Source of the DNA: an uncultured Clostridium sp.
GTDB taxonomy: Bacteria; Bacillota; Clostridia; TANB77; CAG-508
DNA length: 64,000 nt
Assembly: GCA_902461935.1 (NCBI GenBank)
Contig: CABPZP010000002.1
Coordinates: 43,685-107,684 of the forward strand
Direction of reading: 5' to 3'
The notes beneath the pieces are model-generated. The model made no database searches and was not told the origin of the DNA. It saw only the letters and a program-made list of their open reading frames with translations. The position numbers and the translations under genes were made by a program. Shown here in pieces: positions 2,721 to 62,413 of the stretch (its first letter is position 1; each line of letters opens with the position of its first letter).

Positions 2721-2757
2721 GTCAAACGTTGTAGGGGTCGGCGTCCCCGACGACCCG
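2721..2757 (+). repeat. REP-like unit (leader GTCAAACGTT + GTAGGGG + hairpin GGGTCGGCGTCCCCGACGACCC)
   Basis: Sequence read directly. A hairpin-less leader copy follows at 2776-2791 (aatgtcaaatgttata). Confidence 0.85.
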
Positions 2758-2819
2758 TAAAAAAAGCATATAATTAATGTCAAATGTTATAAATTAATAA
2801 TTAGAAAGGAGAATTAAAA

Positions 2820-3365
2820 ATGAAATGTCAAAATTGTGGTAAAAACAATGCAAATGTAAAATATACACAAATAATAAATGGAGAAAAAAAGGAATTTATT
2901 CTATGTGAGGAATGTGCTGAAAAACTTGGAATTAATAACAAAATTCACTTTGATATGAATATGAATTTTGGAAGTATTTTAGGAGATTTCTTCGATGAAT
3001 ATAAATCAAACTATGGATTATTAGGTGATTTTCCAGAATTAGAACCAGAAAGATGTGAAAAATGTGGAATGACATATGAACAGTTCATAAATGAAGGAAA
3101 ATTTGGATGTGATAATTGTTATAATGTATTTTCAAATAAAATAGATGGTGTGTTAAAAAATATTCAAGGAGCAAATATTCACACAGGAAGAAAAGGTAAA
3201 AGAATTGAAAGCAAAATAGTTAAAAAAGATAAAAAGGAAGAAAAGCAAGAAGATAAAACATTAGATTTAAAAGAAAAACTAAATAAGGCAATAAAAGAAG
3301 AACGTTATGAAGATGCAGCAAAAATAAGAGATGAAATTAAAAAAGTTGAAAGGAATGATAAATAA
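2820..3365 (+). CDS. mcsA: McsA, protein arginine kinase activator (zinc fingers + UVR domain)
   Basis: CxxC pairs (CQNCG, CEEC, CEKCG, CDNC) and a C-terminal UVR-like ERYEDAAKIRDEIKK. Sits between ctsR and mcsB. Confidence 0.9.
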   Translation: MKCQNCGKNNANVKYTQIINGEKKEFILCEECAEKLGINNKIHFDMNMNFGSILGDFFDEYKSNYGLLGDFPELEPERCEKCGMTYEQFINEGKFGCDNCYNVFSNKIDGVLKNIQGANIHTGRKGKRIESKIVKKDKKEEKQEDKTLDLKEKLNKAIKEERYEDAAKIRDEIKKVERNDK

Positions 3366-4381
3366 TGAATTGGTATTTACAAAGTGGAAAAGAATCTGAT
3401 GTTGTTGTAAGCTCAAGAATAAGACTTGCTAGAAATATAATAGAATATCCTTTTGAAACAAGATGCTCTAAAAAAGAAAATGAAGAAATTGTAAATAAAA
3501 TAAAAGAAGTTTTACCATCAATAGGATATGGCTTAAAAATATTAAAGCTAAAAGATATGGACGATATAACAAAAATGAGTTTAGTGGAAAAAAGATTAGT
3601 TAGTCCAGATTTTGTTATGAACAAAAATGACATAGGAGCAATAGCAATTAATGAAGAAGAAAATATATGTATAATGATTAACGAAGAAGACCATTTAAGA
3701 CTACAAGTATTCGCACCAGGATTTGAAATTGAAGAACTTTTAAAACTTATGGTAGAAATAGATACTAAATTTGGAAAAGCTTTAAATTATGCATATAATG
3801 ATAAATACGGATATTTAACAGCTTGCCCAACAAATGTAGGAACTGGAATGAGAGTATCTGTAATGGTACATTTGCCAGCACTTACAAAAACAGGAAATAT
3901 ACAAAAAGTATTGCATATTATAAATAATTTTGGAATGAATATAAGAGGAATATATGGAGAAGGAAGCAAAGCAGCAGGTGATATGTACCAAATATCTAAT
4001 AAACAAACTCTTGGTGTATCTGAAGAAGAAATTATAAATAATATGAAAATTATAGTAGAAAAAATAATAGAACAAGAACGTTTAGCAAGAAAATATCTAG
4101 CAAAACATAGTATAGAGTTAGAAGATAAGGTTTACAGAAGCTTTGGAATCATTAGTAATTGTAAGAAAATATCTTCAGAAGAAGCTAGAGAAATTTTGTC
4201 AGATGTAAAGTTGGGAACAGATTTAGGCATAATAAAAGAGCTAGATGATTTGAAAGTTAAAAAATTGTATTTATATACTAAACCGGCTAATTTGCAAAAA
4301 TATTTGGGTGAAGTAAATGATAATTATGAGCGCGATATAAAACGTGCAGAAGTAATTAAAAATATAATTAAAGAAAATTAA
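3365..4381 (+). CDS. mcsB: McsB, protein arginine kinase (ATP:guanido phosphotransferase)
   Basis: Contains CPTNVGTGMRVSVMVHLPAL, the phosphagen-kinase active-site motif. Operon context. Confidence 0.9.
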   Translation: MNWYLQSGKESDVVVSSRIRLARNIIEYPFETRCSKKENEEIVNKIKEVLPSIGYGLKILKLKDMDDITKMSLVEKRLVSPDFVMNKNDIGAIAINEEENICIMINEEDHLRLQVFAPGFEIEELLKLMVEIDTKFGKALNYAYNDKYGYLTACPTNVGTGMRVSVMVHLPALTKTGNIQKVLHIINNFGMNIRGIYGEGSKAAGDMYQISNKQTLGVSEEEIINNMKIIVEKIIEQERLARKYLAKHSIELEDKVYRSFGIISNCKKISSEEAREILSDVKLGTDLGIIKELDDLKVKKLYLYTKPANLQKYLGEVNDNYERDIKRAEVIKNIIKEN

Positions 4382-4388
4382 TAATTCT

Positions 4389-4609
4389 ATGCCAAATATA
4401 TTGTTTTTTATACCTTGGTGTCGCAATCTTCGGATTAAAAATGGTCATTGACCATTTGGGGACATATTTAATATTTTATAAAATTATTTTCTAGATTTAC
4501 ACATACTAACATGTAAATTTATAAAATGAAGATTGCTCCAAATCGCACTCGCAGAAAACTGCTCGTTTGGTCGCTTACGCGGTATTTCAAAACAAATATA
4601 TTTGTCATT
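4389..4609 (+). mobile_element. MITE-like inverted-repeat element, copy B (about 221 bp, carries an extra ~100-bp insert)
   Basis: Same left arm (4389-4428) and right arm (4530-4609) as copy A. The insert holds its own palindromes: aatggtcattgaccatt (4440-4456) and atttaca..tgtaaat. Confidence 0.7.
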
Positions 4610-4648
4610 TCATAAATTTATTATAATTATGTTTTCTACAAATATTAT

Positions 4649-4687
4649 TGTCAAACGTTGTAGGGGTCGGAGGCCTTGGGCGACCCG
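4649..4687 (+). repeat. REP-like unit (TGTCAAACGTT GTAGGGG TCGGAGGCCTTGGGCGACCCG)
   Basis: Sequence read directly. ORF 4533..4718 is a translation artefact across MITE+REP. Confidence 0.8.
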
Positions 4688-4733
4688 AAAAAATAAAATT
4701 AAAAATATTTTAAATTAGAAAGGAGAAAAGAAC

Positions 4734-60086: not shown

Positions 60087-60713
60087 ATGGCAAGATATAA
60101 AGATGAACAATGTCGTAGATGCCGTAGAGAAGGACAAAAATTGTTCCTAAAAGGTGATAGATGTTATTCAGATAAATGTAGTGTATCTAGAAGAAACTAT
60201 GCTCCAGGAGAACATGGACAAAAAAGAACAAAACTTTCTGAATATGGTACACAGTTAAGAGAAAAACAAAAAACTAAAGCATATTATGGAGTTTCAGAAA
60301 AACAATTTAGAAAATATTTTGAAATGGCTTCTAATAAAAAAGGTATAACAGGTAATAACTTATTACAAATATTAGAAAGCAGATTAGACAACGTAGTTTA
60401 TAGATTAGGATATGGTAGCTCAAGAGCACAAGCAAGACAACTTGTAAACCATGCTCAATTTGAAGTAAATGGTAAAAGAGTAGATATACCATCTTATTTA
60501 GTAAAAGCTGGAGATGTTATCAAAGTTAGAGAATTAAAAGCAGATAATGCTACAATAAAAGCTAACGTAGAAGCAAATTCTGCAAGACCAGTACCTGCTT
60601 GGTTAGAAAGAGATTTCGAGAACTTAAGCGGTAAAGTAGTAAGATTAGCATCTAGAGAAGATATAGATTTACCAGTAGAAGAGCATTTAATAGTAGAACT
60701 TTACTCAAAATAA
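60087..60713 (+). CDS. rpsD: 30S ribosomal protein S4
   Basis: [26 protein letters not shown]. Confidence 0.95.
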
Positions 60714-60781
60714 TAAAGTGTAAGAGTATAAAATTATTAAAAAGGTTGCTATGCAAGTGCAACTCTATTAGGAGGTAAGAG

Positions 60782-61729
60782 ATGATAGAATTTGAAAGAC
60801 CCAACATAGAATGCTTAGAAATAGACGAAGCAAAAAATTATGCAAAATTTGTATGCGAACCATTAGAAAGAGGATATGGAGTTACAATAGGAAATTCTTT
60901 AAGAAGAATACTTTTGTCTTCATTACCTGGTTCAGCAATTACAAGCATAAAGGTTGATGGGGTACTACACGAATTTTCTACAATACCAAATGTTGTAGAA
61001 GACGTTCCAGAACTTATTGTTAATTTAAAAGCTGTACGTTTAAAAATGGACGGTGTAGAAGAAAAAATAATAAGAATAGATGCAAATGAAGAAGGAGAAG
61101 TAACTGCAGCAGATATAATAACAGATGGTACTGTTGAAGTTTTAAATCCAGATTTACATATAGCAACAGTTTCTAAAGGTGGAAGTCTAAAAATAGAAAT
61201 GACTGTTAATAAAGGTAGAGGATATAATTCAGCAGAAAAAAATAAAAAAGAAAATGACGATATATCTGTTTTACCTATAGACTCTATATTTACACCAGTA
61301 AAAAAAGTTAATTATGCTGTTGAAAATACAAGAGTTGGACAAATGGTAGATTATGATAAATTAGTTATTGAAGTATGGACAGATGGAAGTTTAAAACCAT
61401 ATGAAGCATTAAGTTTAGCTGCAAAAGTTATGACAGGGCATTTAGAATTATTTATAGATCTATCAGAAGCTACAAAACATACTCAAGTAATGATAGAAAA
61501 AGAAGAAAATAAAAAAGAAAAAGTACTAGAAATGTCAATAGAAGACTTAGAATTATCTGTAAGATCATTCAATTGCTTGAAGAGAGCAGGAATTGCTACA
61601 GTTGAAGATCTAGTTAATAAATCAGAAACAGATATGATGAAAGTAAGAAATCTAGGAAAAAAATCTTTAGATGAAGTAACAAATAAATTACGTTCATTAG
61701 GATTTGACTTTGCTAGTGAAGAAGAATAA
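60782..61729 (+). CDS. rpoA: DNA-directed RNA polymerase subunit alpha
   Basis: 315 aa; [17 protein letters not shown]; [19 protein letters not shown]. Confidence 0.95.
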
Positions 61730-61745
61730 AAAATATTAGAAAGGT

Positions 61746-62285
61746 GTGAATAAGTTGGCTAAAAATAGAAAATTAGGAAAAACAACTGCACAAAGAAAAG
61801 CAATGCTTAGAACTCAAGCAACAGACTTAATATTAAATGAAAAAATAACAACAACAGTTGCAAGAGCTAAAGAAACAAAAGCTATAGTTGATAGCTTAAT
61901 AGCATTAGCAATAAAAGAAAAAGACAACTTTGAAATGGTAGATTCTAAAATTATTAGAGCTAAATTAGATAACAATGGAAACAAAGTTACAGAATTAGTA
62001 AAAAGCAAAAATGGTAAAGAATACCTAAAAGTTGTTAAAGAAGAAGTTGTAGAAAAAAGACAAAAAGACATGCCATCAAGATTAAATGCTAGAAGAAAAA
62101 TAATGAATAAAACAAACAAAGTAAAAGACGAAAAAGGTAAAAACATAGATATACCAGCAAAATTATTTGGAGAAATAGCAGAAAAATATTCTAAAAATGG
62201 TAATGTTGGAGGATATACAAGAATAGTAAGATTAGGACAAAGAAGAGGAGATTCAGCTGAAATTGCTATACTTGAATTAATCTAA
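61746..62285 (+). CDS. rplQ: 50S ribosomal protein L17 (extended, about 179 aa, with an internal K/E-rich insertion)
   Basis: KLGKTTAQRKAMLRTQATDLI...GGYTRIVRLGQRRGDSAEIAILELI. Confidence 0.9.
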   Translation: MNKLAKNRKLGKTTAQRKAMLRTQATDLILNEKITTTVARAKETKAIVDSLIALAIKEKDNFEMVDSKIIRAKLDNNGNKVTELVKSKNGKEYLKVVKEEVVEKRQKDMPSRLNARRKIMNKTNKVKDEKGKNIDIPAKLFGEIAEKYSKNGNVGGYTRIVRLGQRRGDSAEIAILELI

Positions 62286-62296
62286 TAAAATATAGT

Positions 62297-62325
62297 TAGA
62301 CGGTCAAAAGACCGTCTTTTTTTAA
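62297..62325 (+). terminator. intrinsic terminator after rplQ
   Basis: agacggtc-aaaa-gaccgtct followed by ttttttt. Confidence 0.8.
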
Positions 62326-62377
62326 TTACAAAAAATTCATTCAATTTATTGGTGGCATTACGTATAAAAGAAATTAT

Positions 62378-62413
62378 TGTCAAACACTGTAGGGGCGGAC
62401 GCCTCTGTCCGCC
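62378..62413 (+). repeat. REP-like unit
   Basis: tgtcaaacacTGTAGGGGCGGACGCCTCTGTCCGCC. Confidence 0.85.

Follow-up and report, generated by a model that had tools for sequence, protein, structure and literature searches.

GTAG-tagged hairpins in a low-GC gut Clostridium: probable REP elements linked to a broken RAYT transposase gene

Short hairpins with a 5' GTAG tag recur throughout a 64,000-nucleotide stretch of an uncultured Clostridium sp. (contig CABPZP010000002.1, positions 43,685 to 107,684; hereafter the window), and the question raised by this locus is what these hairpins are and what dispersed them. An initial annotation, made from the letters of the window, had likened them to the repetitive extragenic palindromic (REP) elements processed by REP-associated tyrosine transposases (RAYTs, also called TnpAREP). 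The computational analysis reported here bears out this comparison. A RAYT pseudogene was found within the window, and it holds three of the hairpins that had been listed (at 15396, 15468 and, on the minus strand, 15653). With a probability of roughly 0.8, the hairpins are REP elements dependent on a RAYT, a transposase of the Y1 HUH type.

The hairpin family is real. The tag sequence GTAGGGG occurs 16 times in the window against 1.08 expected, a count that none of 100 shuffles reached, and a GC-rich hairpin follows directly at 15 of these 16 sites, the remaining one (12109) being coding sequence. The leader TGTCAAACGTT, allowing at most one mismatch, was observed nine times (0.92 expected), and leader plus tag GTCAAAYRTTRTAG, at the same tolerance, 13 times (0.30 expected); every match of either lies on the plus strand. 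A covariance model built from an alignment of 28 REP units agrees, returning 18 matches in the window at E < 1e-5 (17 on the plus strand and one on the minus strand) and four borderline relics at 32356, 35211, 35996 and 44578 (E 0.2-1.3). The copy at 36065 is among the strong matches even though it was outside the training set; it had been classed as a relic (36069), and it is slightly decayed, scoring 38.7 bits. All 18 strong copies in the 64 kb are extragenic, apart from three within the RAYT remnant. A realistic count for the window is 18 solid copies, four to five relics and two to three terminator-like relatives, in place of the 27 (24 plus, three minus) annotated initially. Two sites on the earlier list, 24720 and 56691, have neither a GTAG tag nor model support, and 24757 lacks the tag; membership of these three finds no support, and a few of the listed copies are ordinary or terminator-like hairpins. 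Further copies outside the window, the search for which had been set beforehand as a refutation test, were found in the 5 kb upstream (four copies) and in sister species.

Across the 28 aligned units T-GTAG is invariant, and it is followed by an imperfect, GC-rich palindrome of 22 nt. Three G-C pairs make up the foot of its stem, and the commonest class has a conserved G.A mismatch within the stem. In this genus the unit spans 58-68 nt and consists of an 11-nt leader, (T)GTCAAACGTT, the REP itself and an A-rich tail of about 24 nt, which frequently ends in a further leader-like motif. Solo units with such a second motif about 24 nt 3' of the hairpin are seen at 2779, ~32553 and ~34376. Read from the coordinates, the leader-to-leader span is 58-68 nt across sites, and the period of head-to-tail units is 63-65 nt. 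The leader, clearly enriched as first described, is carried by only about half of the copies in the window and is a feature of this genus rather than of the family as a whole; it is missing from other Clostridia with an identical REP and present in the low-GC relatives L014 and L087 (L-numbers denote loci or strains of relatives). Within the window the units stand as singlets or head-to-tail arrays facing one direction, and the sole inverted pair is inside the RAYT gene; head-to-head REP pairs occur in other Clostridia. Because REP families made mainly of singlets are known (PMC3733652), inverted pairs, though common among REPs, need not be present.

The two arms of the stem change together, as had been proposed. 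Classes A, B and C are in register, all 22 nt long, with paired changes at positions 4/19 and 5/18. Covariation was assessed in 117 database matches to a pattern in which nothing but tag, 5' arm and loop was set and the 3' arm was left free, so that the set is non-circular. Positions 4/19 are T-A in 43 matches, C-G in 67 and otherwise in 7; positions 5/18 are C-G in 75, G-C in 34 and otherwise in 8; and positions 7/16 are mostly a G.A mismatch (54 of the 117). The 3' arm is complementary to the 5' arm in 94% of the matches. Pairing is found in 92% of cells, a level reached in 0/500 shuffles, and slid-partner controls give 30-54%. Folded as single-stranded DNA (ssDNA), the hairpins reach -7.6 to -11.1 kcal/mol and leave TGTAG free of pairing at their foot.

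The candidate enzyme was found by clustering all open reading frames (ORFs) in REP-bearing genome stretches, which returned a single recurring family of small proteins, marked by the motifs YDYS..G.YF.T.C, MPNH.H and WQRSY..H.IR...Y..I..YI..NP. When these proteins were used as tblastn queries, they matched the window itself at 15259-15692. An N-terminal frame (15259-15522) is followed, after a frameshift, by a second frame (15507-15692) that contains the HUH motif MPNHVHMII at 15609-15635, in a segment reading IKLTTYGEII...YIIMPNHVHMIIELARQENGSSRTPTPT. Compared with intact homologues, about 55 residues have been lost through an internal deletion at the junction of ..TPTPT with KWIRGE and a stop codon, which removes the WQ..EH..R GTAG-contact segment and the helix of the catalytic Tyr. 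The frameshift and the deletion, with loss of the catalytic Tyr, make the window's RAYT a pseudogene of the family. The gene is broken in the same way in the independent assembly L001. Its three internal REPs lie at 15397 (+), 15475 (+) and 15679 (-), the unit at 15459..15509 sitting 78 nt (26 codons) past that at 15381..15431.

Pfam gave no match to this remnant; only NCBIfam and tblastn searches with homologues revealed what it is. For all RAYT queries the best family is NCBIfam NF047646, REP-associated tyrosine transposase, with E-values of 1e-16 to 3e-20 for the homologues; Pfam Y1_Tnp scores 32.8 bits for one of them (cut-off 23), and their best match among solved structures is PDB 4ER8, the TnpAREP of E. 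coli. The database proteins nearest to the reconstructed fragment are themselves fragments, followed by intact genes of 170-180 aa (P0004, P0006, P0008, P0010 and P0018). These intact homologues keep the catalytic Tyr (Y..NP helix), the HUH motif and the residues that contact GTAG in 4ER8 (W94, Q95, E100, H101 and R104). Their IWQRNYYEHIIRN aligns with IWQPRFWEHAIRN of E. coli, and this is the segment that the window copy has lost. The source of P0008 and P0006 is a sister species sharing 93% identity with the window over rpoA-lemA, in which the gene sits after murG. In the window's own species, this second RAYT locus (~17550-18160) is present in L121, L123 and L124 and absent from L119, L120 and L122; strains without it include the one identical to the window. 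Strains that have it carry a broken version, in which the reverse REP is now of long-loop class D, reads G S P stop (TAA) and shifts the frame. The search for an intact Y1/HUH gene, which the initial annotation had called for, thus succeeded in the sister species and met only broken loci in the window's own species.

The presence of REPs within RAYT genes extends far beyond this lineage. All 11 RAYT genes examined, from very different hosts, have REPs in-frame at two positions, a forward one ~140-200 nt into the gene and a reverse one just past the HUH motif. Among full-length homologues, a set biased by the query, the forward REP peptide was found in 33/89 and the reverse in 37/89. In the RAYT genes of the sister species, the forward REP and its surroundings (54-68 nt) match the dispersed unit at 32482-32548 with 91-94% identity; since this identity includes the flanks, the dispersed unit and the in-gene copy are one element. 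RAYT proteins from other REP-bearing species are only ~35-45% identical to those of the window's lineage. In Clostridiales RUG502 (L054, 1476-1560), a 42-nt tandem REP array lies in-frame in the RAYT gene, its repeats encoding GTGPSGTPAPTRE(T/A).

The distribution of the REP was surveyed by a pattern scan of genome contigs over 596 Gb, for which ~70 random matches are expected and the species counts are lower bounds. The pattern was found in more than 100 genome stretches with a local GC content of 23-70%, and the 26-nt REP is common to at least about 100 species, mostly gut Clostridia. Among the matches listed, nearly all hosts are metagenome-assembled genomes of Clostridia (Oscillospiraceae, Acutalibacteraceae, Ruminococcaceae and Lachnospiraceae), and minor hosts include Bacteroides, Deltaproteobacteria, Thermomicrobia, Acidobacteria and others. 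A chance origin of the matches was rejected, as nearly all of them run on into the unspecified complementary 3' arm and CCCG. Carriage by phages was likewise rejected, the class A REP being rare on viral contigs (5/2.9 million).

The orientation of the copies fits the direction predicted by single-strand Y1 transposition. The window has a GC content of 22-31% and carries the ctsR-mcsA-mcsB-clpC genes and a ribosomal-protein/secY/adk/map/rpoA cluster. Together with a full-length OLE (ornate large extremophilic) RNA at 780-1366 (+; Rfam RF01071, 365 bits), these features identify it as part of a low-GC member of the Clostridia. Its cumulative GC skew climbs steadily, so that the plus strand is the G-rich, leading-type strand throughout. 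In the genus, the GTAG strand is the locally G-rich strand in 48/56 non-redundant copies, the eight exceptions being class F hairpins, discussed below, and the reverse REP that RAYT genes contain. The orientation is reversed at the negative-skew loci L014 and L046. The G-rich strand carries the sequence of the lagging-strand template. It is the lagging-strand template that serves as the substrate of Y1 transposases (PMC6006769).

Transcription offers another account of this bias. If the hairpins were host-selected RNA elements, such as 3'-end stabilisers or RNase processing sites with an incidental link to RAYT, one would understand why most copies are 20-70 nt past stop codons in co-directional spacers and co-oriented with transcription, and why one lies within a ribosomal-protein operon; REPs elsewhere do stabilise upstream mRNA (background in PMC6006769). 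Two spacers between antisense genes, at window 28957 and at L001 5114, speak to this point, since the copies there are antisense to both neighbours and yet keep their strand orientation; the first (28941..28991) runs against local transcription but remains on the G-rich strand. Moreover, the presence, class and number of copies vary between near-identical strains, several copies are decaying, and some lie in-frame within a transposase gene. Host selection as the origin of the family is therefore unlikely. Hairpins transcribed within mRNAs may nonetheless act as 3' stabilisers, a function that can only be, at most, a secondary role.

Whether the hairpins are intrinsic terminators depends on the class considered. 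The short-loop hairpins of class F (GGGCGACCATTGGTCGCCC and relatives), at 41163-41190 (+), 28899-28920 (-) and 24757-24779 (-), are followed by T runs and track the direction of transcription. Two of the three carry a GTAG tag, that at 24757-24779 (-) being without one, and a terminator scan calls two, 24779- and 28898, and not 41163. The class F sequence of 41147..41194 recurs, tag included, in the relatives L014 and L117. Class F hairpins look like terminators, and they may be terminators related to, or derived from, REPs. Two of them (41161 and 28898) had been counted as ordinary copies; they are indeed GTAG-tagged hairpins, of a separate class with T-rich tails. For the family as a whole, termination is an extremely improbable function, because classes A-E have A-rich tails and no T tract and none is called by the scan, one copy lies between two ribosomal-protein genes of a single operon, and two copies come after canonical terminators (7178-7200 and 62298-62317). 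The earlier statement that the hairpins on the plus strand are not intrinsic terminators holds for classes A-E. A weaker AT-loop hairpin, GTAG plus GGGCAGAAAATAATCTGCCC, at 2037-2059 (+), after an ORF ending at 1970, has a model E of 5 and could be related to the family remotely or only by chance resemblance.

Other identities were also considered. A CRISPR array was rejected, as the arrays have two to three units and the would-be spacers are conserved leader or tail sequence; no cas genes were seen among the window ORFs or the Pfam listings of the loci. At gathering thresholds Rfam matched the OLE RNA only, a permissive scan of 2397-4740 returned no relevant family, and a tRNA/tmRNA search found none.

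Strains of this species differ at REP sites far more than elsewhere, although they are 98-99% identical. The comparison contigs come from human-gut metagenomes and are 98-100% identical to the window; one of 99.5 kb (ERR636373 k127_122284) is identical over the compared parts. The strain differences include unit-sized indels of 58, 60, 63, 64 and 121 nt and blocks of 249, 305 and 334 nt that combine a REP with a MITE, a miniature inverted-repeat transposable element. For example, the mcsB-clpC spacer is filled by 334 nt comprising a REP unit and a MITE whose terminal inverted repeats are 26 nt long, a block that is absent from L003-L005, in which the spacer is only 16 nt, and the same spacer has an extra REP unit of +60 nt in L001 and +58 nt in L006. 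A 249-nt MITE and REP block in the ctsR-mcsA spacer is missing from strain L004, the 121-nt block holding the first adk-map REP unit is absent in L123 and L124, and L123 has a 305-nt REP and MITE insertion at window 62388. A synteny break in strain L130 falls at the REP at 28941..28991, and strain L126 has a 56-nt insertion within the relic 35996..36057. Near-identical strains carry three alleles of spacer 32160-32786, namely relic B+B+A, A+A, and a single hybrid hairpin followed by unrelated sequence, and strain L127 has an intact class A unit where the window has the relic 32356..32406; REP units at this site have been overwritten or recombined in place. In L132, the Rpn-like gene between the class E units is replaced by one class-B-like REP behind the same leader. 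The turnover noted initially is borne out by these whole-unit differences, the four borderline relics and the RAYT pseudogene.

Two other kinds of sequence accompany the REPs. The MITE-like element (+), with ~26-nt terminal inverted repeats TGCCAAATATATTGTTTTTTATACC ... GGTATTTCAAAACAAATATATTTGTCA, occurs at 2566-2703, at 4390-4607, where it has a nested insert, and at 44520-44559, as a collapsed pair of ends. Each sits just 5' of a REP unit, with which it is gained or lost jointly between strains, and no Rfam family matched it. Fragments of Rpn-family genes (Transposase_31, PD-(D/E)XK) lie at 15709-15993 (+), directly 3' of the RAYT remnant, and at 34546-35118 (+), between direct class E units; at the latter site, strains L126 and L129 have the gene at its full length (364-372 aa) and L132 lacks it.

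Such variation raises the question of whether a transposase is needed at all. Segmental duplication, slippage and homologous recombination among a few loci would account for head-to-tail arrays that vary in whole units, for the allele whose hybrid hairpin arose by recombination between two units, and for indel boundaries that do not fit a single cut site. As the only means of spread, these processes are very unlikely, given that the copies are dispersed over at least 15 unrelated spacers with dissimilar flanks, that the same 26-mer is found in at least about 100 species of very different GC content, and that the REP is linked with a Y1 transposase gene in which it resides. Part of the strain turnover is clearly recombination between units, and part may be transposition.

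Several points nevertheless weigh against the dependence of these REPs on a RAYT. The NF047646 scores of 29, 61 and 73 bits are under the curated cut-off of 80 bits. No intact RAYT was found in the window's species, in which both loci were seen broken and one is missing from the window's strain, and current mobility is therefore unproven. Nearly all genes also face the leading direction, and only two spacers separate a replication bias from a transcription bias. Several indel boundaries do not agree on one cut site (for example, those of the 121-nt block at 57479 and of the extra unit, 58-60 nt, at 4663), so that a single precise cut site derived from strain indels was rejected, and many of the strain variants could stem from recombination or slippage between units rather than from transposition.

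If the hairpins are RAYT-dependent REPs, the biochemistry of Y1 transposases suggests how they would move. The RAYT would bind the folded hairpin and its GTAG guide on ssDNA of the lagging-strand template, would cut short sites flanking the hairpin on either side, and the excised unit would be joined into a similar site elsewhere. Such cutting and joining on the lagging-strand template is expected to produce singlets and head-to-tail arrays that all face one way. TnpAREP enzymes cut between C and T or between C and A on each side of the REP, and the GTAG guide helps in the choice of site (PMC8266576). On the strength of these cut rules, the leader would carry the cut or target motif, and a single guide for both cuts would explain why a like motif is found at both ends of the unit; the strain indels give no single consistent junction. 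As the window's RAYT is dead and the second locus is absent, the REPs of the window are probably orphans, now decaying and reshuffled by recombination.

A wider proposal can be put forward tentatively, and we regard it as rather doubtful. It holds that this RAYT clade keeps master REPs in-frame, enzyme and element forming one package, and that in this genus a 58-68-nt single-hairpin unit moves, is cut at the leader motif at both ends through a single GTAG guide, lands only on the lagging-strand template and can be overwritten where it resides.

The initial annotation had been unable to place the hairpins in a described family. Judged by its features rather than by phylogeny, the system shows what is distinctive of TnpAREP subclass 2.4 as described by Quentin et al. 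(2018; PMC6006769), the equivalent of RAYT group 4 (Bertels et al., 2017; PMC5581495). That subclass has in-frame REPs, generally between the HUH motif and the Tyr, and long REPs with three G-C foot pairs, and its proteins lack a C-terminal extension (PMC6006769). The present system resembles it in the 5' GTAG at the foot of a GC-rich imperfect palindrome, in the three G-C foot pairs, in the REPs set in-frame in the transposase gene, also in the part between its HUH and Tyr motifs, and in a short protein without a C-terminal extension that conserves the GTAG-contacting W, Q, E, H and R. In contrast to subclass 2.4, which is reported to abound in Cyanobacteria and Bacteroidetes and to be scattered elsewhere, the host here is a low-GC gut member of the Clostridia, and the REPs of this genus form singlets and head-to-tail arrays with an 11-nt leader instead of inverted pairs. 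Firmicutes go unmentioned in the REP surveys consulted, and the only remark that literature searches found on REPs or RAYTs of Firmicutes or Clostridia concerns RAYT group 1 in Clostridia (Bertels et al.). The kind of system is known, and this is a new member of it from a host group in which such systems are uncharacterised in the literature searched.

Comparison with better-studied systems helps to delimit this one. The REPs and bacterial interspersed mosaic elements (BIMEs) of E. coli and their TnpAREP (RayT, 4ER8; group 2 / subclass 2.2) share with it the GTAG guide and imperfect stem, the fold family of the enzyme and the motif IWQ..(F/Y).EH.IR..DY...YI.NP; the G.A mismatch takes the part of the bulge that is required in the E. 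coli REP. However, protein identity to E. coli RayT is only 23-29%; in E. coli the REPs alternate as inverted pairs (BIMEs) on either side of the gene and do not lie within it; and the E. coli REP is species-specific, whereas the 26-mer crosses families and phyla. By analogy with the IS200/IS605 elements (IS608, ISDra2; TnpA), activity would involve strand-specific ssDNA transposition on the lagging-strand template, with a guide tetranucleotide 5' of the hairpin picking the cuts (PMC8266576, PMC6006769), and the one-way orientation of the REPs is the footprint expected of such a mechanism. Unlike in IS200/IS605 elements, the transposase gene is not enclosed between a pair of distinct end hairpins and apparently does not move jointly with the REPs, and the profile match to IS200 is much weaker than that to RAYT (24 vs 72 bits). 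Like the REPINs of Pseudomonas (Bertels and Rainey, 2011), the units would be non-autonomous and RAYT-dependent. REPIN repeats decay following RAYT loss (bioRxiv 10.1101/2021.07.10.451892), and the present system has a broken RAYT and several relics. A REPIN is an inverted doublet folding into a single long hairpin, whereas the mobile unit here is apparently a single REP with leader and tail.

The individual copies are collected in Table 1. The 122-aa and 102-aa ORFs on either side of the REP at 51427..51477 are probably rplN and rplX, to judge from gene order. The window also contains 5-6 coding repeats of 156-162 nt with WGxN-like motifs (10242-11262, +) in the ORF at 9213-11342, the product of which is a repeat-domain protein with no relation to REPs.

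Table 1. GTAG-tagged hairpins, relics, class F relatives and the RAYT pseudogene of the window, with covariance-model scores (bits or E) where given.
Feature	Position	Strand	Context and support
REP unit with leader, class A	2715..2765	+	ctsR-mcsA spacer; 72.9 bits
REP unit with leader, long-loop class D variant	4644..4695	+	mcsB-clpC spacer; 58.9 bits
REP, class A, without leader	7216..7266	+	convergent spacer, 3' of clpC terminator; 55.9 bits
RAYT (TnpAREP, Y1 HUH) pseudogene	15259..15692	+	tblastn, translation, NCBIfam NF047646 E 6e-7, alignment with E. coli RayT and with intact P0004/P0008
REP unit, class B (GGGCGGACGTCTCTGTCCGCCC)	15381..15431	+	inside RAYT remnant, encodes VGADVSVRP; 60.5 bits
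REP unit, class A (GGGTCGGCGTCCCCGACGACCC)	15459..15509	+	inside RAYT remnant, encodes VGVGVPDDP; 63.9 bits
REP, class A, reverse	15645..15695	-	inside RAYT remnant just past HUH motif, encodes GSSRTPTPT; 36.2 bits
REP, class C variant (GAGTCGACGCCTCTGTCGACTC)	19276..19327	+	52.3 bits
REP, class C (GGTCGACGCCTCTGTCGACC)	24625..24675	+	55.4 bits
Class F variant (GTAGC-GGCGGTCATTGACCGCC), T-rich tail	28890..28936	-	3' of minus-strand serS
REP, class B	28941..28991	+	flanked by two minus-strand genes; 47.8 bits
Decayed relic, class B unit	32356..32406	+	E 0.22
Two REP units with leader, class B then A, head-to-tail	32419..32534	+	65-nt period
REP unit with leader, class E (GGGCACGGTGCTCCGTGCCC)	34310..34358	+	left bracket of Rpn-like gene; 47.3 bits
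REP unit with leader, class E	35149..35197	+	right bracket of Rpn-like gene; 49.3 bits
Decayed relic with leader, class D-like	35211..35266	+	E 0.24
Decayed relic with leader	35996..36057	+	E 1.2
Slightly decayed class B REP unit with leader (GTAA tag)	36065..36115	+	38.7 bits
Class F, short-loop GTAG-tagged hairpin	41147..41194	+	TTTT follows; 5 nt past stop codon; E 0.076
Decayed relic with leader	44578..44635	+	adjoins collapsed MITE; E 1.3
REP, class A	51427..51477	+	in ribosomal-protein operon between 122-aa and 102-aa ORFs; 52.8 bits
Class D (57511) and class C (57633) REP units, both with leader	57495..57667	+	adk-map spacer
REP unit with leader, class B	62373..62423	+	3' of rplQ terminator; 56.5 bits

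Nearly all REP systems examined to date come from Proteobacteria and consist of inverted pairs, and the spread of REPs is still called poorly understood (PMC8266576). The Clostridial system offers one-way single units with a leader, intact and broken RAYT alleles in sister lineages, and abundant strains in human-gut metagenomes that differ by entire units, so that strand specificity, the choice of cut sites and the decay of REPs after RAYT loss become testable in it. Much of the structural variation between genes in this gut species is accounted for by the REP system, and the REP-derived peptides VGVGVPDDP and GSSRTPTPT will recur in protein searches. If the wider proposal is true, the in-frame package could explain how about 100 species of several phyla come to share an identical 26-nt REP despite the divergence of the protein, and the metagenome strain series of this species would be a natural record of REP spread.

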